Position numbers and translations under genes: made by a program
Shown: one piece after another, positions 1,232 through 43,491 of the stretch
How the letters are laid out: the number at the start of each line of letters is the position of its first letter
Position numbering within the stretch: the first letter of the stretch is position 1
Notes under the pieces: model-generated
Told to the model about the DNA's origin: nothing
What the model saw: the letters and a program-made list of their open reading frames with translations, nothing else
Databases searched by the model: none
DNA from: Candidatus Babelota bacterium
GTDB taxonomy: Bacteria > Babelota > Babeliae > Babelales > JACPOV01
Assembly (NCBI GenBank): GCA_016191325.1
Contig: JACPOV010000008.1
Span: 910,351-974,350, forward strand
Length of the DNA stretch: 64,000 nucleotides
Reading direction: 5' to 3'

Positions 1232-3910
1232 CTATTCGCGCACATAGATACCGCCGTTTCCGCATAGCATTAATCGCCCCGTACTTGTATCAAAAACAGT
1301 ATGATCAAGCTCTGTCCAATACGGCCCGGAAGCTTGTATAAAAGTATTATTAGTTTTGTGCAACCCTAAGCGCATGCCAGGGTTTATTAATTGATGAACT
1401 TGGAAAAATGGAGCCACTCCGCGGCCGGCAGCTTTGGTCATCAAAAGATGTGATCCTTCAGCTAAAATAGAACGGCGATACTCTTTACAATTAAGAAGCA
1501 TATCCTGCTTCTCTTTGCACGAAACAATTTTCAATTCACCGTTGAGATAATAAAAACGATATACCCACGAATTGGCCTCAAGAACTGAACCAGCAAGCAC
1601 ATAGATTTGTTTTTTTTCGCTAGAACCCGCGCAATCGCCACCGCAAACAGCGTAAAGACTTATTATCGATTTATTCTGCAATGGCGCAACTGCTTGCCAA
1701 TTGCAATCGATCGCTCCCTGAACACTGCGCAGAGAAACGCCAGGAGCTGTATTAAATAAACCATGGGTGGTTGCTACAATCGCTCCGCTACTGCCAATAA
1801 TCGCATCGGTAATCGTTCCTCGCGTATATTCTTTTATTGAAAAAACTTGCGTTGATAAAAGCTCATTTTTAACAATCGCTTCATCAGACAATTCTACTCG
1901 TTCAATCCCGTTTCTCGTCATTACAAAAAGACAATCATCTCCGGAAATTAACTTTTGTATGCCTCGATGCGTACCTATTTTTTTCCACGAATACTCTTCT
2001 TTTGAACTTTCAAATAAAAAATCCTCAAATGTTGCCTGTGCAGGTATTCCCTTGCCATCCTTATCGCAAAGAATCGCAAGACCTTTAATACCGCCGGCAA
2101 CTAACCACGTTGATCCATCACTGGCAACTGATGTAACGCACGTTATTGGCCCAAGATCATCTAAAGCACTACCCTCGAAGGTATAATGCAATGGCTGACA
2201 AGTACGGCTTGTGAGCCCAAGAAAAACTTTCTTAAATCCTGTCGCTGCGATCAAACCTGCATGATCATCGTTAACCATCATTCCTGGCGTATTTTTATCA
2301 AAAAACGCAACTCCCTGAACACCACCCAAAGCAGGAGAAAAAGAATTCACCAGTTCGCGCGCCAGAGTGAAAGTTGTTTGATGTTCTTTAATCTGCTCAT
2401 TATCCACCGCAGGCATCCAGGCAGATTTATAAGGATGCAGAGCCTTTTGATTATCAACTCCCATTATTTGAAGAACGCGATGCTGATCGTTGTAAATAAA
2501 TTTGAGCGGTTGTTCTTTTGTCGGGAAGGAGCGTTTCCAAGGTGTCCACGAAGCAATGCGGCCCTGTTCATCGAAAATAGGATCGGATGCAAAAAGCCCA
2601 TGCGCATTTGCATCTGTACCTCGCACAGCTACCCATACCGAATCTCCCACCGTTTGCATATCAATTATTGATCCTGGAAGCTCTTTGCCGCCGCCGATGG
2701 AAATAGATTCAGGATCGAGTTTTGTTTGCGTAAATTTATTTCTAAACAAAAACCCCCATGCAGAGCTTGCTCCGGTTTCGTTATTTGCTAACGTTCCAAG
2801 TGCAGGATCTTCACTCCATTCTGAAAAAGATGTCGTCCACGATCGATCAACCACAGGAAAAGCAAACATCTTTTTGTTCGTTTCCTCAGGAGAACCATTA
2901 CCGCCAACGATAATTAAATAAAGAGCTCCCGTTGATGTTCTGAGAGTTTGAATTTTATGTAAACTTATTTTTTTTGAAGAACCCATTGAACTGAACGGAG
3001 TATCGCCCAATTGCGCAAGAGATTCATGCGGCGCAAATGGCTCAAGGCATAAACGATCGCCAACCAATCTGCCAACGAGCAATGCGCAGCTTCCTTGATC
3101 ATGAGTCGCATGTTTTTTTGTCGTCGATTGAACCGCAATGAAAAGGCGTCTCAGATGGTGATCCCAATGTAAAGCTACAGCATTCGGCATCAAGCTATCC
3201 AAACCACCATTAATGGAGAGGAGATTTGAATTCCCTTCTCCGTTATCGATCGGATAAGCACAGTTTCCATTACTTTTGCCGCTGTGCGCATCCAGCGGAT
3301 TAAAATAAAAGCGTTTAATGTACGGTTGCGGCTCTTCTTTGTTTGTTTTTTCGTTGCGAACCATGGTCGTGCCGATCTCGCGATCAAGCCGGAGTACCGC
3401 AATCCCACCACCAATTTCTCCAAATTGGCGGCCGTGCCCTTTTACAGCAGCAAAAAAATAATCGTGATCAATATTCTCTTGTGTTCCGGAAGCGCCAATG
3501 CTGAGCCCAAGAATACCATCGGTTGGAAGTGGCCCAGTTCCACTCGTTCCCGCATCGTTGATTCCTTCAATACTATTAATTGCTAATACTGGAGACGATG
3601 GTGCTGAAACAATGTGATAAAGTGTACTCGGTTCGTCTTTAGTAACAATGAGTGGTTGATCGACCAATAAATCAAATAAACTAACTTCTTTATCTTCTAG
3701 CGGATTATCTTTAACTTGTTGCCCGTTAATGTATACGGTTGAGGAATAACCAAATGAAACTTGAATATCACCAATCATTTTTAAAGAAGATGTTCTGCCA
3801 TCTTCCATAGCAAATGCGAGATTGCGATTGGAAAAATCAACAATTGGATCAGCGGCACCATGCAAACTCAAGGCCTGGTTTAAAATCATAAGAATAAACA
3901 GAAGCATCAT
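1232..3910 (-). CDS. Large secreted protein of unknown function (892 aa), probably beta-rich
   Basis: Long ORF with an N-terminus (MMLLFILMILNQALSLHGAADP) that resembles a cleavable signal peptide. No family recognised. It ends 27 bp upstream of the OMP-like gene on the same strand. Confidence 0.75.
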   Translation of the reverse strand: MMLLFILMILNQALSLHGAADPIVDFSNRNLAFAMEDGRTSSLKMIGDIQVSFGYSSTVYINGQQVKDNPLEDKEVSLFDLLVDQPLIVTKDEPSTLYHIVSAPSSPVLAINSIEGINDAGTSGTGPLPTDGILGLSIGASGTQENIDHDYFFAAVKGHGRQFGEIGGGIAVLRLDREIGTTMVRNEKTNKEEPQPYIKRFYFNPLDAHSGKSNGNCAYPIDNGEGNSNLLSINGGLDSLMPNAVALHWDHHLRRLFIAVQSTTKKHATHDQGSCALLVGRLVGDRLCLEPFAPHESLAQLGDTPFSSMGSSKKISLHKIQTLRTSTGALYLIIVGGNGSPEETNKKMFAFPVVDRSWTTSFSEWSEDPALGTLANNETGASSAWGFLFRNKFTQTKLDPESISIGGGKELPGSIIDMQTVGDSVWVAVRGTDANAHGLFASDPIFDEQGRIASWTPWKRSFPTKEQPLKFIYNDQHRVLQIMGVDNQKALHPYKSAWMPAVDNEQIKEHQTTFTLARELVNSFSPALGGVQGVAFFDKNTPGMMVNDDHAGLIAATGFKKVFLGLTSRTCQPLHYTFEGSALDDLGPITCVTSVASDGSTWLVAGGIKGLAILCDKDGKGIPAQATFEDFLFESSKEEYSWKKIGTHRGIQKLISGDDCLFVMTRNGIERVELSDEAIVKNELLSTQVFSIKEYTRGTITDAIIGSSGAIVATTHGLFNTAPGVSLRSVQGAIDCNWQAVAPLQNKSIISLYAVCGGDCAGSSEKKQIYVLAGSVLEANSWVYRFYYLNGELKIVSCKEKQDMLLNCKEYRRSILAEGSHLLMTKAAGRGVAPFFQVHQLINPGMRLGLHKTNNTFIQASGPYWTELDHTVFDTSTGRLMLCGNGGIYVRE

Positions 3911-8783: not shown

Positions 8784-9350
8784 ATTTATGCTCCAAAAAA
8801 GCTAATTCTGGCCCGGCCCTTTCTTAACGAATCGTCTTCTCTTCCTCAATTTTTATGTGTTCATATTTTTTTATTTCATTCGTAGGATTACGACTTTCTT
8901 TATTACTATCGCTATTAACATGATTTTTCAGCACCTTTTTGATTAAAAAAGTGCCCTCGTTTTCATTACTCTTTTTTAAGGAATCTTCTTTCTTGATAAC
9001 TATATTTATCTATTTAGCCCTGCGCCGCTTTTTTTAGATCGGCCAGAGTTTCTCGATAGCCTGATTTGTCAGCTATCAACCAATTTCACATTTGTCATTT
9101 ATTTAAAAAAGTAGCCAGTTTGACATAGTTTTTTAATTCAATTATTATGAATAGAGCATGCGTATATTGGTGTTTTCCGTTAGGCCGAGCCTTTTAACTT
9201 AAGTTTCAAATGTTGGTTATATTCTTTTCTTTAGCATTATTATTTGAGCTTTGCGCTCTTCCGATGAATAACACCCAAGATTCTATCACGAACTTGCCCT
9301 TGCCAAGTGAACTTAATTAATATCAATTATTTATTTATATGGGGTTATTT

Positions 9351-10157
9351 ATGAACTTTTTATTATTGATATGTGCATTCATCATGCATTTTTCTATTTT
9401 TTCTATGGAAAATCCAGACAACAACAATCAATCTGCCAATGATGGATCGGCGATCATCAAAAAGTTAGATGGTCACCCAGCGATCGTTGATAAGATATTT
9501 CAATATGTCCAAGCCGCACGAATCAGAGAGCTTAATGGTTTTAAAGCATTAAAACCAAAAAATGAAAATGTTCTATTTTGCGATGAAGATGAAAATCCTA
9601 TCGCGATTGATCCTGTTCTTATTTTTGGCGGAATACAAACAAGCGGAGATAAGCAGATTCTTATTGCTCCCAATAAGACTATTCCGGGATTTCGTGTAAA
9701 AACCGAAGGAACTCCCAAGAAAATAAACGCGTTGCAGCAGGAAAATTACTCTATACAATTCGAAACTAAACCATCGAGCAAAGCATCGCCACAAGCAAGG
9801 GTAATTAAAACACTGGATGATAAAAAAGAAACACTTTATTCGCCAAAATCATCAATCGTTATTAATAACAATAACCCGCTAGCAAATCTTTTTGCTCGAG
9901 TTGCTCCTGCAACTACGCAGCCAGCTGCGCGCAGTCTTTTTTCGAATGGTAAGCCAAAAAGCGTTGGTCTCAAGACATTCGGAAATGGCCGCTTCGTTTA
10001 TATGGGCAATGATCACGTATTTGATCACCTCACCCATCAAATAGCTATTCTTCCGGAAAAAACAAATCTATCATCGGTTATATATTTCACGCCGACTATT
10101 TTGGAATCGGCTCCGACGAATAAATTGGCGAATATTGAATCTGCAAAAAAAGCATAA
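9351..10157 (+). CDS. Leader-bearing hypothetical protein (leader class ...S-M-E)
   Basis: The track ORF starts at 9339. The ATG at 9351 gives MNFLLLICAFIMHFSIFS|MENPDNNNQ. No family recognised. Confidence 0.65.
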   Translation: MNFLLLICAFIMHFSIFSMENPDNNNQSANDGSAIIKKLDGHPAIVDKIFQYVQAARIRELNGFKALKPKNENVLFCDEDENPIAIDPVLIFGGIQTSGDKQILIAPNKTIPGFRVKTEGTPKKINALQQENYSIQFETKPSSKASPQARVIKTLDDKKETLYSPKSSIVINNNNPLANLFARVAPATTQPAARSLFSNGKPKSVGLKTFGNGRFVYMGNDHVFDHLTHQIAILPEKTNLSSVIYFTPTILESAPTNKLANIESAKKA

Positions 10158-10195: not shown

Positions 10196-11014
10196 ATGAA
10201 TATTCTATTTTTAGCCTTTGTAACTTTCTCATTTTCTACCCTATGTATGGAAAATGGTTCTAAGAAAATCGTTAAAACATACCAGGGACATGCGCGCCTG
10301 CATAATGTAGACCTGAATAAGAGTGAAGCTACGACGCTAGAAACAAACGCTCAAAATTCAACTTGCGCATACGTACCTAAAAAAACAAAAGCTCCAAAAC
10401 ATGTAACTTTTGGATTAGTGAAAGTTATTGCTGATCAAGATAATAAGAACATAGTTTCTGAAGTAAAAAAAGATGATAAATGGGTTCACTTTGATGACGA
10501 AGTGAGCGTTGCGGCACATTTATTAAAACCTAAGCCTGCGTTCAGAATTCAGAAAAAAGTTACATTTATCCCTCAAGGGTTGAAGTTCGAGAGAGATCAA
10601 GACGGAAAACTCCAAAAACAGGACGGATGCTTCATCGTAAAAGAACCTAAGTCTGGCAAAACTCACCTATGGCAGCATGGGGCTCACGAGCAAGCTTTGC
10701 TTAACCATGTCGGGCAAAAAGGGATCCATACTATTGGCGATAACATCCAAGTCGTTATTAAGCCAGATACGGAAGCGCGATTGGTTACCACAGTTAACGC
10801 GCAAGATAGAAGACTCACCTTATATTCTCTCTTGCCGGCAAAAAACAGCGGATTAGACGCCGTTTCTGAAAGTTATGATATCAAGACTCTTGAAAATGAT
10901 GGCATTAATAAGATTATTGTTGGCCCCGATGCTCACGTTAAATTCCGTGGAACAAAATCAGGTTCACAAAAACCAATGATATTCTTTACTGAGCAAACGC
11001 AAGAAAAGAAATAA
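10196..11014 (+). CDS. Leader-bearing hypothetical protein (leader class ...C-M-E)
   Basis: MNILFLAFVTFSFSTLC|MENGSKK. AGGA lies 7 nt upstream of the ATG at 10196. No family recognised. Confidence 0.7.
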   Translation: MNILFLAFVTFSFSTLCMENGSKKIVKTYQGHARLHNVDLNKSEATTLETNAQNSTCAYVPKKTKAPKHVTFGLVKVIADQDNKNIVSEVKKDDKWVHFDDEVSVAAHLLKPKPAFRIQKKVTFIPQGLKFERDQDGKLQKQDGCFIVKEPKSGKTHLWQHGAHEQALLNHVGQKGIHTIGDNIQVVIKPDTEARLVTTVNAQDRRLTLYSLLPAKNSGLDAVSESYDIKTLENDGINKIIVGPDAHVKFRGTKSGSQKPMIFFTEQTQEKK

Positions 11015-16472: not shown

Positions 16473-16588
16473 CCCGACCCTTCGATACAAACGCTGTCGC
16501 ATTTACTCAGGGCGAGCGGGATTTATGTCTTCCGCTCGTGGTGAGTGTTTTGCAAACCTTAGTGAGCAAAATGTATCGAACCATAGCG
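16473..16588. repeat. Nested-palindromic intergenic repeat element, copy A
   Basis: Left arm CCCTTCGATACAAACGCTGTCGCATTTACTCAGGGCGAGCGGG (16478-16520), 10-nt spacer, right arm TCCGCTCGTGGTGAGTGTTTTGCAAACCTTAGTGAGCAAAATGTATCGAACC (16531-16582). The arms are imperfect reverse complements. Both recur at 26.7 kb, and a variant at 28.5 kb. Confidence 0.8.
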
Positions 16589-16598
16589 GAGACTAAAA

Positions 16599-17666
16599 AT
16601 GAAAGTATTAACTATTGGTGGCGCCACGCAAGATATCTATATTGTGCCCAAGCAGCTTGAAACACTCAATCTAAAAGGGACTTCGTATCTTGCGCTGGAA
16701 GTTGATACAAAAATAGAACTAGAAACAATACTCTACTCTACCGGCGGAGGAGCTACAAACTCCGCCGTTTCTTTTTCTCGACTCGGATTTCAAACATTTA
16801 TTAACTGCCTGCTAGGCAAAGATCTTGCCGCGCACGCAGTTATTCAAAAACTTGAACAAGAAAACGTAAACACGAATTATATTCATACTACCGACGAATC
16901 ACAAACAGGCAGATCGTTCATTATTCCGTCCGCGGGCGGAAAGCGAACTATTTTATCATTTCGCGGTGCAAACACGCATTTGCATCGGGAGCATATGCCG
17001 CTTTCAATGCTCAAACAGTTTGATTTGATTTATATAACTTCACTCAGCGATGCAGCAGCTCCTCTCTTATTGCCAATTGCGCTCCAAGCGCGTGAGCTTG
17101 GCGTAAAAATTGCGACAAATCCTGGCGGCAGCCAATTGCATGCAGGAATCGGCGCCCAAATTCTTTTTCAATCGCTTCACGCGATCGATATTTTAATTTT
17201 AAATGCACAAGAAGCTGAACTTTTTATGGGAACGATTTCTAAAGAACATTTAAAAGCCGGTGCGCCGATTAGCCAAAAAACAAATAATTTACCATCGCTA
17301 CTGCATGCCACTTCTTGTTTTAATCTCCTGGATTATTGTGCCACGATCATCGCCCAGGGCCCCAAAATTGTTGTTGTTACTAATGGCGCTGAAGGTGTGT
17401 ACGTCGCGACTCAAAATGAAATTCTTTTTCATCCTGCTTTGAAAATAGATGTGATCAATACCGTGGGTGCCGGCGATTCATTTGGTTCGTGCTTTGTCGC
17501 TTCAATCGTTCAAGGAGAATCGATCGAGCAAGCGTTAATAAATGGGATGATCAATAGCGCAAGCGTGCTCACGCATCACGATGCAAAAGAAGGATTATTG
17601 ACCCAGCAGGAACTACAAAAAAAAGCTACGACATCTGCCGTAGATGTAAAAAATTGTACATGGTAG
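16599..17666 (+). CDS. PfkB-family carbohydrate kinase (ribokinase-like)
   Basis: GGGATNSAVSFSRLG near the N-terminus and the C-terminal VINTVGAGDSFGSCFVASIVQG PfkB signature. Confidence 0.85.
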   Translation: MKVLTIGGATQDIYIVPKQLETLNLKGTSYLALEVDTKIELETILYSTGGGATNSAVSFSRLGFQTFINCLLGKDLAAHAVIQKLEQENVNTNYIHTTDESQTGRSFIIPSAGGKRTILSFRGANTHLHREHMPLSMLKQFDLIYITSLSDAAAPLLLPIALQARELGVKIATNPGGSQLHAGIGAQILFQSLHAIDILILNAQEAELFMGTISKEHLKAGAPISQKTNNLPSLLHATSCFNLLDYCATIIAQGPKIVVVTNGAEGVYVATQNEILFHPALKIDVINTVGAGDSFGSCFVASIVQGESIEQALINGMINSASVLTHHDAKEGLLTQQELQKKATTSAVDVKNCTW

Positions 17667-17675
17667 CTTTAATTT

Positions 17676-19772
17676 TTAAAATATTATTCCCATTTTGTTT
17701 ATCAAACGCTGTTGCAAAGGATGCGGCAAGGTGCCAAACAGGCTTTTAAGATCACTTGGCAATTCCACCGTCTTCTTAATTTTACCTAAATGAAGAATAA
17801 CTCTTACAAGTAATGCTTGTTCCAAAGTCAAACGAGCTACATAAGGGGTGACATCATCCCATATAATTACTGACTTACTGTTCATAAGAAAAAACGCGAG
17901 TACATTTTCACTCAAGGCAAACTGCATAATGTTATCATCAAAACCTGTTACGATCGGATAAGGTGAAGATAATGCAAGTTCCGGTATCCAAAGGGCTATT
18001 CCGTTAGAAGCAGAACTGTCTTTAAAAGAATACGCAAGCATAGTACCAGCACCATTAAAAACAAAGGAATTAGCAACCAAGGATCCCTTAATCTCCTGGT
18101 CATATACAGTTACCGTCTTCTGAAGTTTATGATCAGCAGCGTTTAGTATTCCTATGTGGACGTTATCCAATCCGACCGCAATTTCTTCCTTTCGAGGATT
18201 AAATACTGATTGGTACACTTTTTTCGGATAAGTACTCACCGTATCTTTATCCAAATCCCATAGAGTGAGAGTCAAATTGCTTATTCTTATCGCTAATTGT
18301 GTACCATGACTATTAAAAGAAAGAGAAACAATACATTGTGTAAGAGCTGTAAACTCGTTCAGCTTTTTTCCACTCATTGTGTCTACTGCTATAATATCAT
18401 TATGGATGCTCTCATAGGCCAATCGACGACCATCAGCACTCATCGTCACGAGGCGATTATACAATTTTCCTGCTGGATCAACTATTGTTTGAATGATTTT
18501 GCCTGTATTCCAATCAAGGATAACAATCTCAGATCCATTCCATTCATCAGCAGCTAGAACCGATCCACCAGAGATCAAAGATTTAAGTGATGTAAAATGA
18601 GGAATTTCAATTACTCTTACTTGTTTCCCTGTTTGCACATCAAAGATAGCAATACTATTACTCGCCATAGCAACAGCAATTTGCGTCGCATCACTATTAA
18701 AAGCTATCGCTCGTATATCAGTACGAATGCTCCCTAATGCTATTTTACCTTTGGTTTTCCAATCCTCTGGAGCAAAGGTAAGCGTTAGTTTTTGAGCCCA
18801 GCCAAAGAGTGCTGATTTATCTGCAAGCATGTTTGCAATGATTTTTTCCTGCAATGTTAACTGCAAATCTGGCACAATTTCATCAACTATCTCAAACAAT
18901 AAAGTTGGATTCTTAGCAACTTGTGTTAAAAAAGCAGGAGTAGCCACTTTATGCGCTAGCGCGCTTTCAACAAGATCAAGTACGGTTGGCATCGCCAAGT
19001 AATTTGCTACTGATAAGAGCTCGATAAGCTGTTTTCGCTCATAAGAAGAGAGATCTTCTGCTAACTTTTCTTTAAGGAGATTAGTTTTTTTGGCAAGGAT
19101 AAAAAGAAGGTTCCAGCCTATGCCGGTTACGTTGGGCAACGACATTTGTGTATCAGCAGGAAGCTCCTTAGGATCTTTATACCCCAAGAATTCTGATAAA
19201 TTTTTTAGTGTCTCCGAATTTTCAATGATGTTTATCGTTATAGCTCGCGCTTCACCTTCAGCAGGTATTGTGAGCGTATAATTAACAAGTGCTTTTTTTT
19301 CAAAGCTACTTGAAGGGATAGAGCAAACGTCGTGCTGCGATGATTTTTTTTGTGCAGACTTAATAGCAGGGGCAACGCCAGTAAGCGCAAATTGCTGATA
19401 TATCTTTTGCAGTACTGGTATATCTAAAAATCGTATTACTTTTCCTAGTTGTGTAAATGCGGTAGTGCCATGAAATTTTCTAAAATTGTTGAAGGTGATA
19501 ACCAGCTCGTCAGGCCTCGAAAGTTTAAGCAATACGCTCAGAATAAAATTAAATGATGTTTCATCCACATCAGGTAGACCAAATTCATTTGCAAACCTCT
19601 CATCAGCGATGATATCTTTAATAGTAGGCGATATTGCTGCTAACTCTTGCAATTGTTCTGATGAAATCCTAGCAGATTTATCATTTTTAAGATGCACCGT
19701 AATAGATGAAGGCAAACTTGCCTGCAACAAAGTGACAAAAAATAATAAATAAATTACTATCAACTTTTTCAT
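17676..19772 (-). CDS. Skp1/BTB-POZ-like (x2) + WD40-like beta-propeller protein, family member E1
   Basis: The preferred ATG at 19772 lies 4 nt after AAGGAG (the track uses GTG 19790). Leader MKKLIVIYLLFFVTLLQA. ITVHLKNDKSARISSEQLQELAAISPTIKDIIADE...GLPDVDETSFNFILSVL and LIELLSVANYLAMPTVLDLVESALAHKV resemble Skp1 ([13 protein letters not shown]...[10 protein letters not shown]...PLPNV; [28 protein letters not shown]). Propeller-type blades include IAVAMASNSIAIFDVQTGKQV and LTLTLWDLDKD. Confidence 0.7.
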   Translation of the reverse strand: MKKLIVIYLLFFVTLLQASLPSSITVHLKNDKSARISSEQLQELAAISPTIKDIIADERFANEFGLPDVDETSFNFILSVLLKLSRPDELVITFNNFRKFHGTTAFTQLGKVIRFLDIPVLQKIYQQFALTGVAPAIKSAQKKSSQHDVCSIPSSSFEKKALVNYTLTIPAEGEARAITINIIENSETLKNLSEFLGYKDPKELPADTQMSLPNVTGIGWNLLFILAKKTNLLKEKLAEDLSSYERKQLIELLSVANYLAMPTVLDLVESALAHKVATPAFLTQVAKNPTLLFEIVDEIVPDLQLTLQEKIIANMLADKSALFGWAQKLTLTFAPEDWKTKGKIALGSIRTDIRAIAFNSDATQIAVAMASNSIAIFDVQTGKQVRVIEIPHFTSLKSLISGGSVLAADEWNGSEIVILDWNTGKIIQTIVDPAGKLYNRLVTMSADGRRLAYESIHNDIIAVDTMSGKKLNEFTALTQCIVSLSFNSHGTQLAIRISNLTLTLWDLDKDTVSTYPKKVYQSVFNPRKEEIAVGLDNVHIGILNAADHKLQKTVTVYDQEIKGSLVANSFVFNGAGTMLAYSFKDSSASNGIALWIPELALSSPYPIVTGFDDNIMQFALSENVLAFFLMNSKSVIIWDDVTPYVARLTLEQALLVRVILHLGKIKKTVELPSDLKSLFGTLPHPLQQRLINKMGIIF

Positions 19773-19843
19773 AAGGCTCCTTTTGCTCACATTTTTTAAT
19801 CACTGTAGCAAAAAGGCTCAGAGACCCGCATTAATTTTGTAAT

Positions 19844-20434
19844 CTATTTTAAATCGGCAAGTAGCTTTTCTATTGCTTTATCGCGAAGACAAACATAGGA
19901 AATGTTTTCTTCATCTAGCTCAGCCAACGTTTTTCCATATTCAGGCAAGAAGAAAATTGTTTTATAGGGAAGCCCTGGAATTAATTTCCCCTTCTGCTCA
20001 CGTGAAATAAAACCATCCAGTGTTCCGCGATAATAATGAATTGTGCCATCTAAGTGAGCGACAGCAAGTGCCGCTACAAACGATGCCGTTCTTTTTCCTT
20101 CAGGGATATCTTTCATCAGCTCAAGAGCTTTGGCGATTCTTTGTTCATCCGTAGCATTCTCGCCGGCAAACCGCTTGGAGTAAATACCGGGTGCACCGTG
20201 CAATGCATCAATGCAAAGCCCACTATCGTCTGCTAGCGTCATCATATGCGCGCGTTCCGCAAAAAAACGTGCCTTGATTCCTGCATTTTCCTCAAAGGTA
20301 AGTCCAATTTCTTCAACATCATCAGTTATTCCAACCTCTTTTAATGAAGTTGTAGGTAAAAACTTTGATATTCTAGAAGAAAGTTCATGAAATTTTCCTG
20401 GATTATTCGTTGCAATAAGAAGCATCTTGCTCAT
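19844..20434 (-). CDS. rdgB: Non-canonical purine NTP pyrophosphatase (RdgB/HAM1 family)
   Basis: LLIATNNPGKFHEL at the N-terminus, ENAGIKARFFA, FFLPEYGKTLAEL. The start is uncertain (GTG 20449, ATG 20434 or ATG 20425). Confidence 0.85.
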   Translation of the reverse strand: MSKMLLIATNNPGKFHELSSRISKFLPTTSLKEVGITDDVEEIGLTFEENAGIKARFFAERAHMMTLADDSGLCIDALHGAPGIYSKRFAGENATDEQRIAKALELMKDIPEGKRTASFVAALAVAHLDGTIHYYRGTLDGFISREQKGKLIPGLPYKTIFFLPEYGKTLAELDEENISYVCLRDKAIEKLLADLK

Positions 20435-20529
20435 AGTAACTGCCTGCACACATTCTTTCTAAGAAGGTTTTCTACAAGCTTATCTTCTAAAAATGATCTA
20501 AGCAATTCACCAGAATATTATTTATAATC

Positions 20530-22632
20530 CTAGAATTTAATTTTTAGTTTTTCAGTCGATTCTTTTTTCAATTCTTCAGGCAGCGCTTGGAAATATGGCA
20601 TCATGTCTTGAGGCAGTTTAAATTCAGGTTGTTTGTTGATTCTGTGCAACTGATAGATCATTAAAAGAGTAAATAGTTGCGTTAGCGCTAATTTATTAAC
20701 GATAGGACGTAATGCATTCCTGGATAAGTTAACTCTATTTTTTATAGCTGCAAGAAATAACCTATCACTTGAATTAACCGCAGCAGCTGTCAATTCCTGG
20801 TTCACTTTAATACTTGTGAGCACTTCACCTGTTTTCAACCCAACAATTTTAATCGCATTATTTTTATTTTGCATAATAATTTGTTCGTTTATTGAATTAA
20901 ATCGCAGGATCCTATCTGTAGCCGAAAATGATCTAAGCTGATTACCCGATTTAATATCTAAAGTCACAAATAAATTTCGAGTTTTTGTTATTAAATTGCC
21001 ATCTTTATCAAACCATATTCGTTCAATTCCATTCGCGACTGAGATGACTCTTTGTTTTGGCGAAGATGAAATATCCCAAAGCTGGATCTCTAAAGTGGTC
21101 GGATCGGCAATAGCCAATGTTTTTTTTGCGTCATCAAATGCCATAGTACAAATTAAAGAAAATGTTCCGTCAAGCGGAATAATACGAATATTTTTCTGGT
21201 TTGCTAGATTAATAATCTGAACTCGTGTATCTGAAGTACGAATTGCTGCCATAGTGCCATCATTACTCAAAATCCCAGGGACTAAACCCAAATCAAAAAT
21301 CGAGGCAGCCATTCCTAATTGTTCCAAGGGGATTGCTGTCATATCTTTTTTTGCACTCAGATCACAAAAACGGAGGGCTTGCTCTCCCAAAAACATACAC
21401 ACGGTGCCTTTTTGACTTATTCTCAATCCTTTTCCAGCCAACTCGTAAGTAAGACGGTAAACTTCTTTTGTTATCCAAAGAATTTGAAGAGGAGAATCTG
21501 GACTCTTTAAAAAAATTATTGGCGTGTTGGTATCTTCATTAACTATTAGATCTGAAATTATCTGATTCGTCGCAATATAATTTGAGAGGTGTAATTCTTC
21601 AGTTTTCCATCCATACGAATTGAGAAAATCCGTTTGTGAAATAGTATTACGAACAATTGAAGCCTCCGCGGTGCTGGGCAATGACGAAACCCATTTTAAG
21701 AAGGTTGCGACATCAGCTGCTTCAGTCGCTAAGAGTTTTTTAATGAGAGCATTTGCCATTTTTTTTTCGACAACATTGCTCAATATTCTCATATCCAAAT
21801 AATCGGCAAGCTGCAGAAATTTGAGCAATTGCTCAGAGTTGAAGCTAATGTTGTTGAATAAATGCGTCACATTTTCTTCATTATTTAAATCGCGCACGGC
21901 TATTGCAAGCTTTTTGAGAATCTCCCACTCTTCTTGGCTGATATTACCAATCACAATTTTTTTTCCTGGAGCAAGTTTTTCAGGAGATACTTCATAAATA
22001 TCTTGAATTAACGTTTTTAAAACGGTCGATGCATTAAAAATCCTAATGATCGTTTGAGCTTCTGTTTGCTCTTTTGGAAATATAACTGCGAACAGCTCGC
22101 GTTCCTCCGTTTTTAGTCTTTTAGTTTCCTCTGTTGATTCAATTTTGCGTTTCCCCTGCTGCAAAGGAGTTACAAGCTGTTCTTGTTGAGCAAGCTCTTC
22201 TCGGTTCTTAAGAATTTTTGAGTACATATTTTGAAATGAAGGAGGCAATTGAATATCAAGATAATTCAGCATATCTAGAACTGACTCAAATCCTCCCAGC
22301 TTTTTTGTTTGTTCTAAGCGAAGTTTTTCGTCAAATTGTTGCAAATCGTTCAAAACCGCTTCGGGCAATGATTTTAGAAAGACAAAAGACTTTTCATCAA
22401 TATCTGGCAGGGCAATTTCTTGTAATTGGCCTTGTTGTAAAATATCCTCTATCAATTCCTTAAGTGTTTGAGATTTAGTCGCAAGAAATAGGAGCTTATT
22501 TTTAGGAATCGTTATCTCCACATCGCCTTTAAGTTTGACCAAAACCTGATCAGGCGGGCAGCTGCCCATCATGAATAAAGCGGATGCAATGATAATTGCA
22601 CGTTGAGCTACTTGTTTTATTATATCTTCCAT
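20530..22632 (-). CDS. Skp1/BTB-POZ-like (x2) + WD40-like propeller protein, family member E2
   Basis: VLVKLKGDVEITIPKNKLLFLATKSQTLKELIEDIL...IALPDIDEKSFVFLKSL, then LLKFLQLADYLDMRILSNVVEKKMANAL. Blades include TLEIQLWDISSSPKQ. The C-terminal tail is shared with E1, E3 and E4. Confidence 0.7.
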   Translation of the reverse strand: MEDIIKQVAQRAIIIASALFMMGSCPPDQVLVKLKGDVEITIPKNKLLFLATKSQTLKELIEDILQQGQLQEIALPDIDEKSFVFLKSLPEAVLNDLQQFDEKLRLEQTKKLGGFESVLDMLNYLDIQLPPSFQNMYSKILKNREELAQQEQLVTPLQQGKRKIESTEETKRLKTEERELFAVIFPKEQTEAQTIIRIFNASTVLKTLIQDIYEVSPEKLAPGKKIVIGNISQEEWEILKKLAIAVRDLNNEENVTHLFNNISFNSEQLLKFLQLADYLDMRILSNVVEKKMANALIKKLLATEAADVATFLKWVSSLPSTAEASIVRNTISQTDFLNSYGWKTEELHLSNYIATNQIISDLIVNEDTNTPIIFLKSPDSPLQILWITKEVYRLTYELAGKGLRISQKGTVCMFLGEQALRFCDLSAKKDMTAIPLEQLGMAASIFDLGLVPGILSNDGTMAAIRTSDTRVQIINLANQKNIRIIPLDGTFSLICTMAFDDAKKTLAIADPTTLEIQLWDISSSPKQRVISVANGIERIWFDKDGNLITKTRNLFVTLDIKSGNQLRSFSATDRILRFNSINEQIIMQNKNNAIKIVGLKTGEVLTSIKVNQELTAAAVNSSDRLFLAAIKNRVNLSRNALRPIVNKLALTQLFTLLMIYQLHRINKQPEFKLPQDMMPYFQALPEELKKESTEKLKIKF

Positions 22633-22665
22633 TTTTTACCTATTGCTTAATTAACGCGCCCGCGC

Positions 22666-24786
22666 CTATTTATTTAATTTTAGATCCGACATAAATTTAG
22701 GATAATACTGCTCAACAAGAATCTTAATATCCATTGGTAAGCTAGTTATCTTTTTTTCAAAATCTTGGCTTAAAATCACTTTTTCTTTTTGCGGACCAGA
22801 AAGCGCATGGTATTTCTTTATTAACGCAAGTGTAAAAACTTTATCGATTGAAAGCTTATCGAGTTGGTAATCAATGTTTTTCCATACAAGTACGCCTTGC
22901 CGTGTCGCGATTGCTATGCGAGACCCATCACCATTAAACGAGATTAAATCATGTCGAGCCATTTCGCCTCTCACCAGAGACCAAACTTCCTGAGGGAGAA
23001 TAATAGTTTGATAGTGTTGAGGATTCGAAACTTGCCAAATTCGTATCTCTTTCCAGTAGTCTGCTGCAATTTTTGCACCATTGGGACTGAAAATAGGATT
23101 CGTTATCCAACCAGGCGCTTCATTGTATTCGAAAGACATGTCCTCAATTATTTTTTCTTTTTCGATATCCCACAGTCTCATCTTTCCTTCGTATGACTTA
23201 GCAAGAAGCTGCTTTTCACTTAGGAACGCAAGGCTTTCAATCGGCTTCATATCTTCAGTCAGCAGTCGCTTGATTATTTCTTTTGTGTTGAGATTTATAA
23301 AGAAAATTCGTCCATCCGCCAGGCCCAATGCAATCGTTTGATCGTTTGGCGAAAAAGCCATGCTATAAATACTCGAATGTGATAAGTCCCATGTATCAAA
23401 AACAGAATCATAGTTATTTGTAGCGAGATCATAGAGGGTGAAAAGTCTACCATTGGCAATATATCCAAGAAATTTATTATTATGGCTAAAGGCACTTGCA
23501 GAATTTGAGGCTTGCTTGACCGTTATTTGGTTTCCGTTTTTTATGTCCATCAAATAAAGGCCTTGAGAAAAGCCTATCCGAGCTTTAGTAGAAATATAAT
23601 TCCCGTTTGGACTAAATTGCATCGCATCTGGTGAAAATTCAAGACTTGCAAGGAAACTTATTTTTTTCGTAGTAGTATCTATGAGTATTATTCCTTTTTT
23701 CTCTTTGTGGGTATCGTTAATACCCGCGGCAACAATTAAACCATCAGGCCTCATCGCTATCCCGCTCAATTCTCGATCGGTGCCAATTTTCAATGGCCCA
23801 CTCCAATGGAATTTTCCCAACAGCTCGCTTTTTAGAATTCTTCGCTTTAGTATTTCGCGAACTTCTGGCGTTATTTGATTAAAAAATTTATCGTAGGCGC
23901 CTAAATGCGCAAGCGCATCAAAAACTATTTCTTCGCTTTCCAATCGTGCTAAAAGTAGATCAATAGCGTTATCCAACAATCGAGCCATTTCTAAATAGTC
24001 TGCAATCAAGAGAATATCTTTTAATCTATCTGCGCTGTATTGCTTGAGAGCATTATGCACTTGATTATCATTAGAAAAATCTTCAATATTATCAGCCAAC
24101 TCTAGGAGTAAATTCCAGTGATCGATCGAAATACTGGTAATAAGAAGGTCTGCTCCCGGCGCAATCTCATCTATGTTCTCAAGCTTACGCGCATCTCTAA
24201 CATAATCTGTAAGAACGCGTGAAGCTTTTACTATCTTTAATACCCGTTCTCTGCTTTTACCTCCTGTCGGAATCGAGATCGTTAATTGCTTACCTTCTAT
24301 TCTTAATTTCTTTGGCTCGGTTATCTCAGATTCTGGCTCTTTTCTTTTGATAGTGATCGGGCAAGCTTGCTTGAGCTGCGGCAAACTATCATACGCGTTA
24401 AGTAACTCTTTAATATCAAAAAATTCAACAACTCTCATCAAATTCGAAAATGAATTGGCGCCGCGTGTCTGCAGATAATTTTTTAATTTGATTATTAATT
24501 GGCCAGGCGATTGAATAATCTTAAGAGCCTCGACGATAAATTTGAGCGAGTCTTTGTCGACCTGTAAAAATGGCAGCTCTTTAACAGCGTTTGCACTGGC
24601 TTCGACTTCTCCAGCAGCATTGTTGATAGTCGGAGAATATTCTCTCAGTTGAATGAATGTCGACTGCGGCACAATAACCGTTTGATCATCTTTTAGATTA
24701 AATTGAACATCGCCAAAACGTGCAGTATAGGCACCCTGACTTATCATTACTGGTAAAAATAAAAGCACCACAGCTATTTTTTTCAT
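22666..24786 (-). CDS. Skp1/BTB-POZ-like (x2) + seven-blade WD40-like propeller protein, family member E3
   Basis: The preferred ATG at 24786 follows GGAGGG (the track extends to 24846). Leader MKKIAVVLLFLPVMISQGA. LKDILLIADYLEMARLLDNAIDLLLARL. Blades include IALGLADGRIFFINLNTKE, GKMRLWDIEKEK and EIRIWQVSNPQ. Confidence 0.7.
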   Translation of the reverse strand: MKKIAVVLLFLPVMISQGAYTARFGDVQFNLKDDQTVIVPQSTFIQLREYSPTINNAAGEVEASANAVKELPFLQVDKDSLKFIVEALKIIQSPGQLIIKLKNYLQTRGANSFSNLMRVVEFFDIKELLNAYDSLPQLKQACPITIKRKEPESEITEPKKLRIEGKQLTISIPTGGKSRERVLKIVKASRVLTDYVRDARKLENIDEIAPGADLLITSISIDHWNLLLELADNIEDFSNDNQVHNALKQYSADRLKDILLIADYLEMARLLDNAIDLLLARLESEEIVFDALAHLGAYDKFFNQITPEVREILKRRILKSELLGKFHWSGPLKIGTDRELSGIAMRPDGLIVAAGINDTHKEKKGIILIDTTTKKISFLASLEFSPDAMQFSPNGNYISTKARIGFSQGLYLMDIKNGNQITVKQASNSASAFSHNNKFLGYIANGRLFTLYDLATNNYDSVFDTWDLSHSSIYSMAFSPNDQTIALGLADGRIFFINLNTKEIIKRLLTEDMKPIESLAFLSEKQLLAKSYEGKMRLWDIEKEKIIEDMSFEYNEAPGWITNPIFSPNGAKIAADYWKEIRIWQVSNPQHYQTIILPQEVWSLVRGEMARHDLISFNGDGSRIAIATRQGVLVWKNIDYQLDKLSIDKVFTLALIKKYHALSGPQKEKVILSQDFEKKITSLPMDIKILVEQYYPKFMSDLKLNK

Positions 24787-24924
24787 AGACCCTCCATTTA
24801 AGATTGAAATTAGTCTAAAAGATTTAGCTCTTGCGGAGCAACACATTGTAGCCGATCAAAATAAAAGTTTTATCGGGGTATCTTTACAACTCAAATGCAT
24901 TCAACTAGCCTGATACCTATATAA

Positions 24925-26650: not shown

Positions 26651-26842
26651 CCCTCGTCCGCCATGGTTCGATACTTTTTGCTCATAAAATTCGCAAAACA
26701 CTCACCACGAGCGGAGTCGGCACTCACAATAGAAGGCCCCAAAAAAAACGTTAATAAATAAGAAAAAATTAATTCAAAAAATCTATCCACCCCGCTCGCC
26801 CTGAGTGATTTCGAACAGAGTGAGAAATTGTATCGAAGGGTT
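26651..26842. repeat. Nested-palindromic intergenic repeat element, copy B (inverted relative to copy A, longer spacer)
   Basis: 26665-26715 (GGTTCGATACTTTTTGCTCATAAAATTCGCAAAACACTCACCACGAGCGGA) is the reverse complement of copy A's right arm, with the last 23 nt identical. 26790-26840 (CCCCGCTCGCCCTGAGTGATTTCGAACAGAGTGAGAAATTGTATCGAAGGG) is the reverse complement of copy A's left arm, sharing blocks of 16 and 12 nt. The spacer is about 74 nt. Confidence 0.8.
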
Positions 26843-31009: not shown

Positions 31010-32383
31010 ATGGGGAATCTAAAAAAAATAATTGGGTGTTTATTTTTTTGTGTGATTGCACTTCCCAGTTATTCCCAAATGCATAAAGAAAAAAAGCCCG
31101 AGATGCGAAGAACCAATAGCTGTCGCGATTTAAAACAACTTCTGGAAGAAGATCCCTTTAAAACCAAAACCTTTGAACAATCTCCACAGCCTTTGGTTAA
31201 CAACAATAACAACAATTCAAAAGATGAAGTTACTGAAGTAAACCTCGCTTCAATGCCTGAAATAATGGAGAATTCTTTTGCGAGAATGATGAAAAAATAC
31301 GATCCATTCCGCAGAACATCAAGTGTGCCAAAAATCGCAATTGAACCAATCGAATCGTATACCTCCAAAAGGCAACCACTCACACGCAGTTTTTCTGAAC
31401 TTTCTTCTAAGGCGTACGCGATTACATATCCTGGTCCTGGGGTTTTTGCAGTTCACGATATGGAAGAGGATAAAGAGCTTCTCACTTTGAACGGTTCACC
31501 GTGGAAAACGCATACCACCTTTGCCAGCCCAACAAGCATTGCTTATATTACAAAGCCGGAAAGCGCTGTGTGCGTTGTAGAAGTGCCCACAGGAAAACAT
31601 GTAAAATGCACAGATTTTAAAGTAATTGATTTCAACAGTTCTACTTTTGAAATCCCACAAGGGGTGTCTAGCCCAGATCTTATTTCTCAAGGGAAAAAAC
31701 CTTATCCAGTTACGGTGAAAGGGCTCGATAATAATAAACTCTTAACCCTTTACCGATCAACTTCCACAACTATAAACAAACAAAAAGGTGGCATTCTTTA
31801 TTTGTGGGAGGTCGACCGAGGAACGTTCACTGAGCTCGACCCAAAAGCTGTTAATATTGATTCTGCGCTTCTTGCTGCCGGTAAATTAATCGATACAAAA
31901 GGGAATGAGATACAAATCTTTGAAAATCCTGGAAAGCAGACAGAATCGATAAAGACAATAGCAAAACATACCAAACCGATAGCGAGCATTTCATTATCAT
32001 CATTATCACAAAATGAACTTATACTCGCTTCAGGCTCTGCCGATAAAACCGTTAGGCTGTGGGATTTGGGAATGTATGGGAGCGAAAGCGCAACTTTTGA
32101 ATTTCCAGAAAAAATAAACGCTGTCGCTTTTCACCCAGAAATCGACTATCTTTTGGCCGTTGCAGCATTAGGAACTATTCATTTTGTCGACACCCGAACA
32201 AAAGAAAGTATTGGTACGTCGCCCCTGGGCGCAATGTGTAAAAATAATATAGTACGAACGCTTAAATGGAATCAAACGTCTCTCTACGTAGAAACCGGAT
32301 TACGCGTGTGGTCGAAATTAACCGGTCTTGATAAATTCTTACAGAGCGGTAAAAAAGTCGACACAACTGCACAATCTCAATAG
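31010..32383 (+). CDS. Leader-bearing WD40-repeat protein with Asn-rich low-complexity linker
   Basis: Leader MGNLKKIIGCLFFCVIALPSYSQ. Canonical WD40 repeat ELILASGSADKTVRLWDL, then INAVAFHPEIDYLLAVAALGTIHFVDTRTKE. GGGAG lies upstream of the ATG. Confidence 0.75.
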   Translation: MGNLKKIIGCLFFCVIALPSYSQMHKEKKPEMRRTNSCRDLKQLLEEDPFKTKTFEQSPQPLVNNNNNNSKDEVTEVNLASMPEIMENSFARMMKKYDPFRRTSSVPKIAIEPIESYTSKRQPLTRSFSELSSKAYAITYPGPGVFAVHDMEEDKELLTLNGSPWKTHTTFASPTSIAYITKPESAVCVVEVPTGKHVKCTDFKVIDFNSSTFEIPQGVSSPDLISQGKKPYPVTVKGLDNNKLLTLYRSTSTTINKQKGGILYLWEVDRGTFTELDPKAVNIDSALLAAGKLIDTKGNEIQIFENPGKQTESIKTIAKHTKPIASISLSSLSQNELILASGSADKTVRLWDLGMYGSESATFEFPEKINAVAFHPEIDYLLAVAALGTIHFVDTRTKESIGTSPLGAMCKNNIVRTLKWNQTSLYVETGLRVWSKLTGLDKFLQSGKKVDTTAQSQ

Positions 32384-39291: not shown

Positions 39292-39744
39292 ATGAAAATT
39301 TTAGCGCAAAATAAAAAAGCTTTTTTTGATTATGAAATTCTCGATCACATCGAAGCAGGAATTGTGCTCACCGGGGATGAAGTAAAATCGATGCGGGCCG
39401 GGCACATTTCGCTTGTTGGTGCCTATGCGACGATTTACCGAGGAGAGCTTTTTTTAATCAATTGCACCGTGGCACCGTATGCGCAGGCGTATCAAAAAAA
39501 AGATGAAACAAAAACTCGTTCACGAAAACTTCTCGTTCATCGGCGCGAACTTAATCGAATCGCCGGCGATATCTCTCGCAAAGGAGTTACGATCTTAGCA
39601 CTCAAAATTTACCTGAATGAAAAAAATCTCATTAAAGTAGATTTGGGAATTGGTAAACACAAAAAAGCTGGCGATAAACGAGAAGCAATTAAAGAAAAAG
39701 ATCTCAAGCGCGAATCGCAACGCGAGTTAAAAAATAAATATTAA
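39292..39744 (+). CDS. smpB: SsrA-binding protein SmpB
   Basis: NKKAFFDYEILDHIEAGIVLTGDEVKSMR...KLLVHRRELNRI...GKHKKAGDKRE is typical SmpB. Confidence 0.93.
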   Translation: MKILAQNKKAFFDYEILDHIEAGIVLTGDEVKSMRAGHISLVGAYATIYRGELFLINCTVAPYAQAYQKKDETKTRSRKLLVHRRELNRIAGDISRKGVTILALKIYLNEKNLIKVDLGIGKHKKAGDKREAIKEKDLKRESQRELKNKY

Positions 39745-40794: not shown

Positions 40795-40834
40795 TAAATA
40801 ACTATATTCTCAGAGTTGATCTGAAAGCAAACGC

Positions 40835-41878: not shown

Positions 41879-41994
41879 AAGTGTTCAGCCAAGCGCTCCT
41901 AAGTAATCACAATGCCAAGCAGTTCGATATTGATAGAAATCTGCAAATTTAAAAATTGAAAAAAAAGAATACCCATTAATATAGTTAGGATCTA

Positions 41995-43110: not shown

Positions 43111-43491
43111 GGGGGCGTACTGGCTTCGACGTTCTATAAACATCGTAGAAAGCATGCCGAGTTTGACTGAGACTCGTACAAAATTGGTCAAAAACAGAAA
43201 TGCAAACGCATCTCAACCGAATCCTAACGCTTACAACGCAGGTTTTGCCCTCGCTTAATCGTTAAGAGACACTTGTCAGTAAGGCGTGTCTATCAGTTGA
43301 ACTGACACGTATTAATCAGATAGAACTGATGCGGTAGATTTTTCAGTTGCGTAGCGTATCAGTATCACGAAACTGGCTCATGCGCATTCCTGTGTTTTCG
43401 AGGGGCGTATGAGTATATTCGAAAAATAAGCATGTAGCGTTTTACGTTTTTTATTTTGCGGACATGGGTTCGATTCCCATCGCCTCCACCA
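43111..43491 (+). ncRNA. ssrA: tmRNA (SsrA), one-piece
   Basis: The 5' GGGGGCGTACTGGCTTCGACG pairs with the 3' ...GGACATGGGTTCGATTCCCATCGCCTCCACCA (T-arm plus acceptor, G3:U70 alanine identity pair, CCA encoded). The tag ORF 43202-43258 (GCA AAC GCA ... GCC CTC GCT TAA) encodes ANASQPNPNAYNAGFALA. Confidence 0.9.

Follow-up and report, generated by a model that had tools for sequence, protein, structure and literature searches.

Exported-type paralogs of a Dependentiae bacterium join Skp1-like modules to a WD40 propeller: candidate single-chain mimics of an SCF receptor arm

Introduction

Why would an intracellular bacterium carry several long genes, each of which combines in one chain the likeness of an adaptor and of a substrate receptor of eukaryotic ubiquitin ligases? 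The question is raised by a stretch of 64,000 nucleotides from Candidatus Babelota bacterium (assembly GCA_016191325.1, contig JACPOV010000008.1, positions 910,351 to 974,350 of the forward strand), which is called the window here and to which all coordinates refer. In the window, three intact minus-strand paralogs of ~700 amino acids (aa) each, named E1, E2 and E3 in this study, flank the rdgB/Ham1 gene. The cullin-RING ligases of hosts are known targets of intracellular bacteria and giant viruses, which hijack them by means of F-box, U-box or BTB proteins. A first-pass annotation, made by a model from the letters of the DNA, had proposed that each of the three proteins joins a leader, two Skp1/BTB-like modules, a WD40 propeller and a shared tail.

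Our study finds that each protein consists of a leader, two Skp1-homologous modules, a disordered linker, inter-domain helices, a seven-bladed WD40 propeller and a conserved helical tail. On this architecture rests our answer to the question: E1–E3 may well be exported, host-directed effectors of an obligate intracellular Dependentiae bacterium, which mimic in a single chain the substrate-recognizing arm of the Skp1-Cul1-F-box (SCF) ubiquitin ligase.

Results

Two Skp1-like modules at the N-terminus

The Skp1 homology is carried by a profile of the N-terminal region of the family, built from 20 members (19 of the 20 matches of the HMMER scan described below, together with E1) and searched against the PDB. 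This profile retrieved Skp1 of Arabidopsis, Dictyostelium, human and yeast with E=1e-12 to 4e-5. The match spans Skp1 residues ~8-152, nearly the whole chain, and the most conserved motifs of the family align with the S-x-T-I-K-x-M-I-E-D, I-P-L-P-N-V and AANYLDI-type motifs of Skp1. In the same search, Elongin C (0.06) and the best BTB chains (E~0.9-1.8) were not significant. Separate profiles of module 1 and module 2 were made from two-module proteins only, to avoid circularity. Module 1 alone placed Skp1 on top (E=1.4e-3 and 6e-3), and module 2 alone retrieved >30 Skp1 entries (best 2.3e-5). Furthermore, the two modules are related to each other in hhalign (probability 94.5%, E=7.5e-8), which points to an internal duplication.

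The predicted structure agrees with the profiles. The AlphaFold model of E1 residues 1-335, with a mean predicted local distance difference test (pLDDT) of 85 and a predicted template-modeling score (pTM) of 0.54, contains two alpha/beta modules split by a disordered linker, and four helices follow the POZ core. Among the top 50 Foldseek matches of this model in the PDB, Skp1/ASK1 ranked best (probability 1.00; template-modeling score (TM) ~0.6, normalized to the target), followed by the BTB domains of KEAP1, BTBD6, BCL6, PLZF, SPOP and KBTBD2, with KBTBD2/KBTBD4 BTB-Kelch chains interspersed. In E1–E3, module 2 keeps equivalents of the Skp1 helices H5-H8 together with an A[ND]YL[DEA][IM] motif, and module 1 keeps H5/H6 only. 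Both modules have the Skp1/BTB fold according to the profiles and models, and their sequences identify them specifically as Skp1 homologues, not as generic BTB domains or Elongin C. Since the modules are specifically Skp1-like, Cul1 is favored over Cul3 as the partner. The window proteins are, by this comparison, divergent Skp1 homologues and not canonical Skp1.

A Skp1/BTB fold in both N-terminal modules was the central claim of the first-pass annotation, and profiles, AlphaFold and Foldseek concur with it; the Skp1-like helix pairs to which it drew attention (LIELLSVANYLAMPTVLDLVESALAHKV and counterparts) are present in the translations of E1–E3. Its division between the modules holds insofar as both are Skp1-like, but module 1 is more than the beta1-alpha pattern described for it, each module having a complete core of POZ part and H5/H6. 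In scans of individual proteins with Pfam, Skp1_POZ matches 10 of the 20 members (best 1.5e-7); of the window proteins, E1 and E2 are sub-threshold and E3 has no match. The BTB family (PF00651) matches 6 of the 20 weakly (best 6.5e-4).

Propeller, inter-domain helices and tail

Pfam places ANAPC4_WD40 above the gathering threshold in E1 and E3, and PF00400 in E3; the matches of E2 are weaker (best E 5.7e-8). A PDB sequence search with E1 returned PkwA and WDR5. The AlphaFold model of E3 from module 2 to the C-terminus (541 residues) has a mean pLDDT of 85.6 and a pTM of 0.80, and its propeller matches the seven-bladed WD40 proteins PkwA, WDR61, ATG16L1 and WDR5 in Foldseek (E~1e-16, TM up to 0.77). 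F-box/WD40 receptors were not preferred among the Foldseek matches of the E3 model. The propeller of about seven blades read earlier in the C-terminal half is thus confirmed by the Pfam WD40 clan and by the Foldseek match of E3. The pTM of 0.80, compared with 0.54 for the two-module model with its floppy linker, suggests that the Skp1 module, the following helices, the propeller and the tail would sit in one rigid frame.

Two elements connect or close these domains. Between Skp1 H8 and the propeller lies a conserved element of the form [LIV]-[PS]-x-[ED]-h-x-x-x-I-x-x-x-I. The C-terminal tail, which had been noticed as common to the three paralogs, follows the pattern L-[ST]-[LFIM]-x-[QE]-hhhh...F-x-x-[LF]-P-x-[ED]-[IV]-K in E1–E3 and in most full-length relatives; in the distant members P0019 and P0020 the likeness, judged by eye, is limited to the first helix. 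For each element one identity was considered, and neither is supported. The tail, in which [ST]Lxxxhxxxh...LPxxh recalls a SOCS box (BC box plus Cul box, PF07525, as in WSB1), yielded nothing in the PDB or Pfam when used as a profile. The inter-domain LPxEhxxxIxxxI helix resembles helix 1 of an F-box by eye only, and its profile retrieved no F-box proteins from the PDB. An F-box (PF00646, PF12937, PRANC) was found neither by Pfam in the tails and full proteins nor by the PDB profile search of the helices and tail. The tail and the inter-domain helices are therefore treated here as family-specific elements.

Leaders and a nuclear localization-like motif

A basic n-region followed by a hydrophobic h-region is recognized by a heuristic in 21 of 21 members examined, and in this way the leader proposed earlier for each paralog was recovered as a putative Sec-type signal. 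A lipobox-like [GAS]C occurs in E2, in its ortholog P0003, and in P0005, P0006, P0012 and P0014. In the cultured Dependentiae bacterium Chromulinavorax destructans, signal peptides are found on 44% of the coding sequences and on 78% of the ankyrin-repeat proteins (PMC6561590). The proteins bearing them are interpreted as secreted factors that manipulate the host and that outer-membrane vesicles may carry (PMC6561590). TM6 genomes also have a type II secretion system in common, with two gspD copies (PMC4776705).

Bipartite nuclear localization signals (NLS) were defined by the pattern [KR][KR]-x(8-12) followed by at least three K/R in five residues, in an accessible region. A motif KRK-x(8-11)-K[KR][LV][KR] occurs in the disordered stretch just upstream of a Skp1 module in E2 and E3, in their orthologs P0003 and P0004, and in P0018, and in P0009 it stands ahead of the first module. 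Six of eight two-module proteins carry it, versus none of nine single-module proteins, where the ortholog pairs do not count as independent observations. The other proteins of the window contain three such clusters in 15,894 aa, so that the motif is enriched in the family. The bipartite motif in the linkers of E2 and E3 is thus a candidate nuclear localization signal.

A rare family traced to Dependentiae

When 1.84 billion representative proteins were scanned exhaustively with the N-terminal profile in HMMER, 20 matches (clusters) were obtained; in the full-length ones, a leader and one or two modules are combined with a WD40 domain and the tail. A few are short fragments, and P0008 (1729 aa) was excluded as a low-complexity match. 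Counts of family size carry a caveat, as the 50%-identity cluster of E1 is represented by a 47-aa fragment (P0026) and E1 itself was consequently missed by the scan. A word-index homologue search with the N-terminal profiles gave no match and then two, the index being swamped by this low-complexity, AT-rich family. Pattern scans of genome contigs with the three paralogs and of metagenome contigs, a method that detects close relatives only, found none. All members with a source name or a recognizable gene context, as checked for some and not all of them, are Dependentiae. Cultured Dependentiae (TM6) are obligate intracellular parasites of protists (PMC4776705, PMC6561590). Such a distribution, 20 matches in 1.84 billion and Dependentiae only where traceable, is not that of housekeeping factors of free-living bacteria, the alternative named in the first-pass annotation.

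Individual members illustrate the variety of the family. P0009 (MBI2774472.1), encoded in the same genome outside the window, is a fourth paralog with a different layout, in which two module-2-type Skp1 copies, each with A[ND]YL[DE]M, precede a canonical WD40 domain and the family tail. P0012 adjoins the same NUDIX-MurJ-ABC-Lon-PfkB block on its NUDIX side in another Babeliales contig (L084 19-2364). Two short fragments of WD40 genes (241 and 107 aa) flank it and suggest gene decay or birth-and-death of propeller genes near this block. Two further members were found in loci L053 and L038.

A 457-aa WD40 open reading frame (ORF) of the window (31010-32383, plus strand) was considered as a fourth window member and rejected, as it has neither a Skp1 module nor the family tail. 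This ORF lies ~6 kb from the E genes and their island and is conserved beside RNase E/G in the sister genome. Its product, in which a leader and a long N-terminal stretch of low complexity accompany a WD40 domain (PF00400 above threshold), represents another type of putatively exported WD40 protein.

A hypervariable island

The three E genes and rdgB together form an island with almost no nucleotide similarity to the sister genome GCA_036260945.1 (L082). The DNA flanks are 82-90% identical between the two genomes; inside the island (17609-24877) no similarity is detectable except in rdgB (65%) and in a 180-nt patch of E2. The sister genome has the order atpB, E3' -> E2' -> rdgB, PfkB, Lon, with no E1. 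Protein identity amounts to 99% for Lon, 99% for the HerA-like protein, 97.6% for AtpB and 88% for PfkB beside the island, and to 58% for RdgB, 35.5% for E2 and 29.7% for E3. The G+C content of the island is 0.36-0.38, versus 0.43-0.45 for Lon and atpB. As rdgB, a housekeeping gene, shares the divergence of the E genes, recombination with a distant allele that replaced the cassette appears likelier than positive selection acting in situ alone.

Synteny around Lon places the window in Babeliales within the Dependentiae. Among 80 syntenic loci of Babeliales, none has an E-type gene at this position. In the closest species representative, with 84% Lon identity, Lon leads directly to atpB (L001 8717-13003). 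Another locus (L002 10001-16082) has the order Lon-PfkB-rdgB-atpB, and PfkB follows Lon in about 30 of the 80 loci. The Lon-atpB interval thus looks like a recurrent insertion or recombination hotspot. A ~52-nt inverted repeat is located at 16533-16584 and 26662-26713, in the spacers after Lon and after atpB, i.e., on both sides of the Lon...atpB region, and both copies match a single site of the sister genome (L082 6397-6449) at 88-96%. The repeat could be a shared terminator or a recombination substrate.

Divergence is uneven along the proteins. Between E2 and P0003, identity is 62% in module 1, 50% in the linker, 39% in module 2, 40% in the inter-domain helices, 25% in the propeller and 53% in the tail. 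The corresponding values for E3 and P0004 are 36%, 42%, 25%, 35%, 27% and 36%. In the E2 pair divergence peaks in the propeller; in the E3 pair the propeller and module 2 are about equally divergent. Module 1, linker and tail are better conserved in the ortholog pairs. This is the trend that would be expected of a conserved docking end and a fast-changing recognition end.

Gene layout and genomic context

The features of the locus are collected in Table 1. The ORFs extend over 17676..19790, 20530..22632 and 22666..24846, all on the minus strand; the starts of E1 and E3 given in the table are internal ATGs, in agreement with the public gene calls. Spacer E3-E2 is 33 bp. In BLASTP the paralogs match each other at 6e-15 (E1-E2), 3e-21 (E1-E3) and 3e-16 (E2-E3), with 21-25% identity, a relationship far beyond chance at the protein level. 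ORFs, spacing and BLASTP accordingly reproduce the three co-directional ~700-aa paralogs of the first-pass annotation, and a match to PF01725 identifies the gene between E2 and E1 as rdgB, as it had stated. An origin of the genes by chance or artefact was rejected, given the length and intactness of the ORFs in an AT-rich genome, their significant paralogy and the conserved relatives found in other genomes. An NCBIfam search gave no family for E1–E3, and the public labels mention a WD40 repeat or a hypothetical protein only, which leaves the Skp1 content currently invisible in annotation.

The neighboring genes are housekeeping genes, namely those for MurJ, an ABC ATPase, Lon, a PfkB kinase, ATP synthase beta, a HerA-like ATPase, OmpA and RNase E/G. 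Promoter and terminator scans of the region gave nothing above chance. The hairpin listed in the table possibly marks the end of an E3-E2-rdgB-E1 transcription unit.

Table 1. Coordinates of the E1–E3 locus and of its predicted parts
Feature	Position	Strand	Remarks
Hypervariable island (E1, rdgB, E2, E3)	17609..24877	.	Almost no nucleotide similarity to sister genome
E1 gene	17676..19772	-	MBI2775343.1, "hypothetical protein", 698 aa; ORF open to GTG at 19790
E1 Sec-type leader, MKKLIVIYLLFFVTLLQAS	19716..19772	-	Heuristic: K/R n-region, h-region mean Kyte-Doolittle 3.0, small residues at QAS
E1 Skp1-like module 1	19371..19709	-	Degenerate; POZ part and H5/H6
E1 inter-module linker	19287..19370	-	Predicted disordered (pLDDT <50, residues 143-166); no strict bipartite basic motif
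E1 Skp1-like module 2	18879..19286	-	POZ part and helices H5-H8; ANYLAM motif
E1 inter-domain helices (IVPDLQLTLQEKIIANML...)	18786..18878	-	Family-specific; E1 model, alignment; no F-box signal
E1 WD40 propeller	17841..18785	-	Insertion in last blades
E1 conserved helical tail (LTLEQALLVRVIL...LPSDLKSLFGTLPHPLQQRL)	17679..17840	-	Alignment, tail profile
rdgB (Ham1-family non-canonical NTP pyrophosphatase)	19844..20449	-	Between E2 and E1; PF01725, E=2.4e-47
E2 gene	20530..22632	-	MBI2775345.1, "WD40 repeat domain-containing protein", 700 aa
E2 leader ending in lipobox-like MGSC	22558..22632	-	Possible lipoprotein signal
E2 Skp1-like module 1	22213..22557	-	Holds the sole individual Pfam Skp1_POZ match of E2 (E=0.05, below threshold)
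E2 bipartite NLS-like motif KRKIESTEETKRLKT	22108..22152	-	Within inter-module linker 22093-22212
E2 Skp1-like module 2	21718..22092	-	ADYLDM motif
E2 inter-domain helices	21598..21717	-	Alignment
E2 WD40 propeller	20713..21597	-	Most divergent of the three
E2 conserved tail	20533..20712	-	Alignment, tail profile
E3 gene	22666..24786	-	MBI2775346.1, "WD40 repeat domain-containing protein", 706 aa; ORF open to ATG at 24846
E3 Sec-type leader, MKKIAVVLLFLPVMISQGAY	24727..24786	-	Heuristic
E3 Skp1-like module 1	24382..24726	-	Family alignment, module-1 profile
E3 bipartite NLS-like motif KRKEPESEITEPKKLR	24301..24348	-	Within inter-module linker 24292-24381
E3 Skp1-like module 2	23878..24291	-	ADYLEM motif, H5-H8
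E3 inter-domain helix (ITPEVREILKRRILKSEL)	23806..23877	-	Model, alignment
E3 seven-bladed WD40 propeller	22876..23805	-	Pfam, AlphaFold model, Foldseek
E3 conserved helical tail	22669..22875	-	pLDDT about 80-91 in model
Terminator-like hairpin	17626..17643	-	Just downstream of E1; scan overall not above chance

Elsewhere in the window, a tandem array of three paralogous ORFs (339, 347 and 344 aa) occupies 39775-43029 on the plus strand, between smpB (39292-39744) and the tmRNA gene (43111-43491). They match each other in BLASTP at 4e-56 to 1e-10, have hydrophobic N-terminal leaders and no Pfam match, and may form another secreted orphan family. Hydrophobic N-termini with no Pfam match are also found in two adjacent plus-strand ORFs of 272 aa each (9339-10157 and 10196-11014), which have no detectable mutual BLASTP similarity, and in an 892-aa minus-strand ORF (1232-3910). 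These 272-aa and 892-aa ORFs fit the high fraction of signal-peptide-bearing orphans reported for Dependentiae.

Discussion

What is observed of E1–E3 is their architecture, homology, signals and evolutionary pattern, and from these we infer export, host localization, cullin binding and ligase activity. In the mechanism that we propose, Sec would carry the E proteins across the inner membrane, and the type II secretion system of the phylum or outer-membrane vesicles would release them from the cell, after which they would reach the host cytosol and, in the case of E2 and E3, also the nucleus. There a Skp1-like module would bind the N-terminal domain of host Cul1 in the manner of Skp1, and the covalently attached propeller would recognize substrates without an F-box protein. 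Chosen host proteins would thereby be ubiquitinated and degraded. As the pTM and pLDDT of the models suggest, the inter-domain helices and the tail probably pack on the C-terminal helices of module 2 and on the propeller, and would in this way rigidify the arm and replace the F-box. By analogy, the logic would be that of a BTB-type single-chain adaptor and receptor, built here from a Skp1 homologue.

A bolder version of this proposal is put forward only tentatively. It holds that the family may be the first bacterial capture of Skp1 itself, instead of an F-box or BTB protein, which was duplicated and fused to a WD40 propeller; that a helical clasp of the LPxE helix and the tail may fill the protein's own Skp1 groove and so stand in for the F-box; and that a nucleus-targeted, F-box-independent SCF arm may be diversifying by cassette exchange at a recombination hotspot. 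In the collection of papers searched, no link between Dependentiae and Skp1 and no account of a Skp1 mimic from bacteria was found, which does not prove that the wider literature has none.

Several observations weigh against E1–E3 as exported mimics of the SCF arm. In single-sequence Pfam scans the window proteins stay under the Skp1_POZ (PF03931) cut-off of 21.9 bits, with 13.5 bits for E1 (E-value 0.085) and 14.2 for E2 (0.051); the scan of E3 has no Skp1_POZ match, and PF01466 is reported in none of the three. As the individual proteins are below the Pfam threshold, their assignment to Skp1 rests on the family profiles and the predicted structure. An envelope location would suit the Sec leader, which in E2 is lipobox-like, just as well. 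The NLS-like motif is no more than a matched pattern in a proteome rich in lysine, and a strict match is missing from E1. To our knowledge, no injection system of type III or type IV secretion (T3SS/T4SS) is known in Dependentiae.

Some of these points feed an explanation that has nothing to do with ubiquitin, namely that E1–E3 are envelope or periplasmic scaffolds, retained by their leader, with a BamB- or TolB-like propeller and a POZ fold that would serve oligomerization only. The Sec-type leader of all members, the lipobox-like cysteines of E2 and five relatives, the lack of a known dedicated injection system in the phylum and the co-directional arrangement with housekeeping rdgB would all suit such a role. 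However, the homology is specific to an adaptor found in eukaryotes only, an NLS-like motif is conserved in the disordered linker, and the NCBIfam search gave no BamB/TolB-type match. The family is, moreover, extremely rare and restricted in lineage, its extreme divergence beside near-identical flanks is atypical of envelope housekeeping proteins, and signal peptides in Dependentiae are typical of presumed secreted host-interaction proteins. We therefore consider an envelope scaffold rather unlikely. Slightly less so, and still unlikely, is a decoy or inhibitor, in which the modules would sequester host F-box proteins through the H5-H8 groove or cap Cul1, and would block SCF or relocalize F-box proteins to the target of the propeller. 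This explanation draws on the same Skp1 homology as ours; module 2 keeps H5-H8, the F-box-binding site in Skp1, and two modules per chain could raise the avidity for host partners. Conserved fusion to a fast-evolving propeller nevertheless fits a substrate receptor better, and the pTM of 0.80 with confident helices after H8 and in the tail suggests that the groove would be occupied intramolecularly.

The choice of cullin allows for one more reading, a BTB-type Cul3 adaptor whose POZ modules would dimerize and, aided by the helices behind them in the role of a "3-box", recruit host Cul3, in the manner presumed for BTB-Kelch proteins and for the BTB-WD40 proteins of giant viruses. BTB domains come second among the classes of Foldseek matches, Pfam finds BTB weakly in 6 of the 20 members, the whole-architecture matches are BTB/POZ-WD-repeat proteins of Mimiviridae, and an adaptor and receptor in one chain is itself BTB logic. 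In contrast, the profiles prefer Skp1 by many orders of magnitude (1e-12 versus a best BTB E~0.9-1.8), the alignment takes in the Skp1-specific H5-H7 and AANYLDI-type motif, and the TM to the viral BTB-WD40 models is only about 0.4, which leaves a Cul3 adaptor improbable.

If E1–E3 are indeed mimics of the SCF arm, a Skp1 homologue fused to a receptor would be a different solution to the hijacking of cullin-RING ligases, one that bypasses the layer of host Skp1 and F-box protein. The family could offer a compact natural single-chain SCF receptor, i.e., the minimum needed to link a substrate to Cul1. It would also provide a testable effector family in Dependentiae, a widespread and almost uncultured group whose mechanisms of host manipulation are essentially unknown. 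Furthermore, 30-36% identity inside flanks of 88-99% at the protein level represents extreme local diversification, which could be of use in the study of arms races between protist hosts and their parasites.

Relation to known systems

Eukaryotic Skp1 (PF03931, PF01466) shares with the E family the POZ fold and the helices H5-H7/H8, and the S-x-T-[IL]-K, [IL]-P-L-P and A-A-N-Y-L-D-I-type motifs align. Skp1, however, is a standalone cytosolic protein of ~160 aa, whereas the E family has a tandem duplicate, a Sec leader, a fused WD40 domain and a novel tail. The Skp1-F-box/WD40 complexes of Fbw7, beta-TrCP and Cdc4 resemble the E family in having a Skp1 domain and a WD40 receptor as the functional unit. 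In those complexes two chains are joined by the F-box; in the E family no F-box is detectable in the helices or tail. BTB-Kelch/KLHL proteins, SPOP and vaccinia A55, which act with Cul3, are alike in that one chain holds a cullin-docking POZ domain, "3-box" helices and a receptor propeller. In contrast to such BTB-Kelch-type adaptors, the POZ domain of the E family is of Skp1 ancestry, which implies Cul1, the propeller is WD40 and not Kelch, and there is no BACK domain.

Among pathogens, effectors with an F-box or BTB-box occur in Legionella (AnkB) and in the NEX/PEX expansions of Parachlamydiaceae (Domman et al. 2014, PMC4209131). Like the E family, they belong to protist-associated intracellular bacteria, fuse parts of cullin-RING ligases to repeats, and evolve by birth and death with tandem paralogs. 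They differ in mimicking the receptor side with an F-box, or in using BTB with leucine-rich or ankyrin repeats, and in being exported by T4SS/T3SS; the E family resembles the adaptor Skp1 itself, has WD40 repeats and Sec leaders, and belongs to another phylum. Plant-parasitic nematodes secrete an NLS-bearing SKP1 homologue that is presumed to be active in host nuclei (PMC2568823). That protein is a eukaryotic parasite's own gene product with no receptor fusion, in contrast to the bacterial, WD40-fused E family.

The first-pass annotation did not recognize the fused architecture as known. This holds no longer for the domain order, which is the same in the BTB/POZ-WD-repeat proteins of giant viruses (Mimivirus R739 and R786, and relatives in Megavirus, Moumouvirus and Pithovirus), but it does hold for the modules, which are Skp1-like here. 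The viral proteins have ~490 aa, similar to the single-module members of the family, and their hosts are amoebae or other protists. They were the top whole-length matches in a Foldseek search of a viral library, with E~1e-15 over 470-540 aligned columns and a TM of only about 0.4. They are annotated as BTB-type, not Skp1-type, and the TM of ~0.4 indicates that the geometry between the domains differs from that of the E family. A pattern scan of IMG/VR contigs, which detects close relatives only, gave no close relatives of the E family. Most likely, the E family is therefore a known kind of eukaryote-like effector that hijacks cullin-RING ligases, in an altered form, and its nearest architectural analogue is the BTB-WD40 protein of giant viruses.

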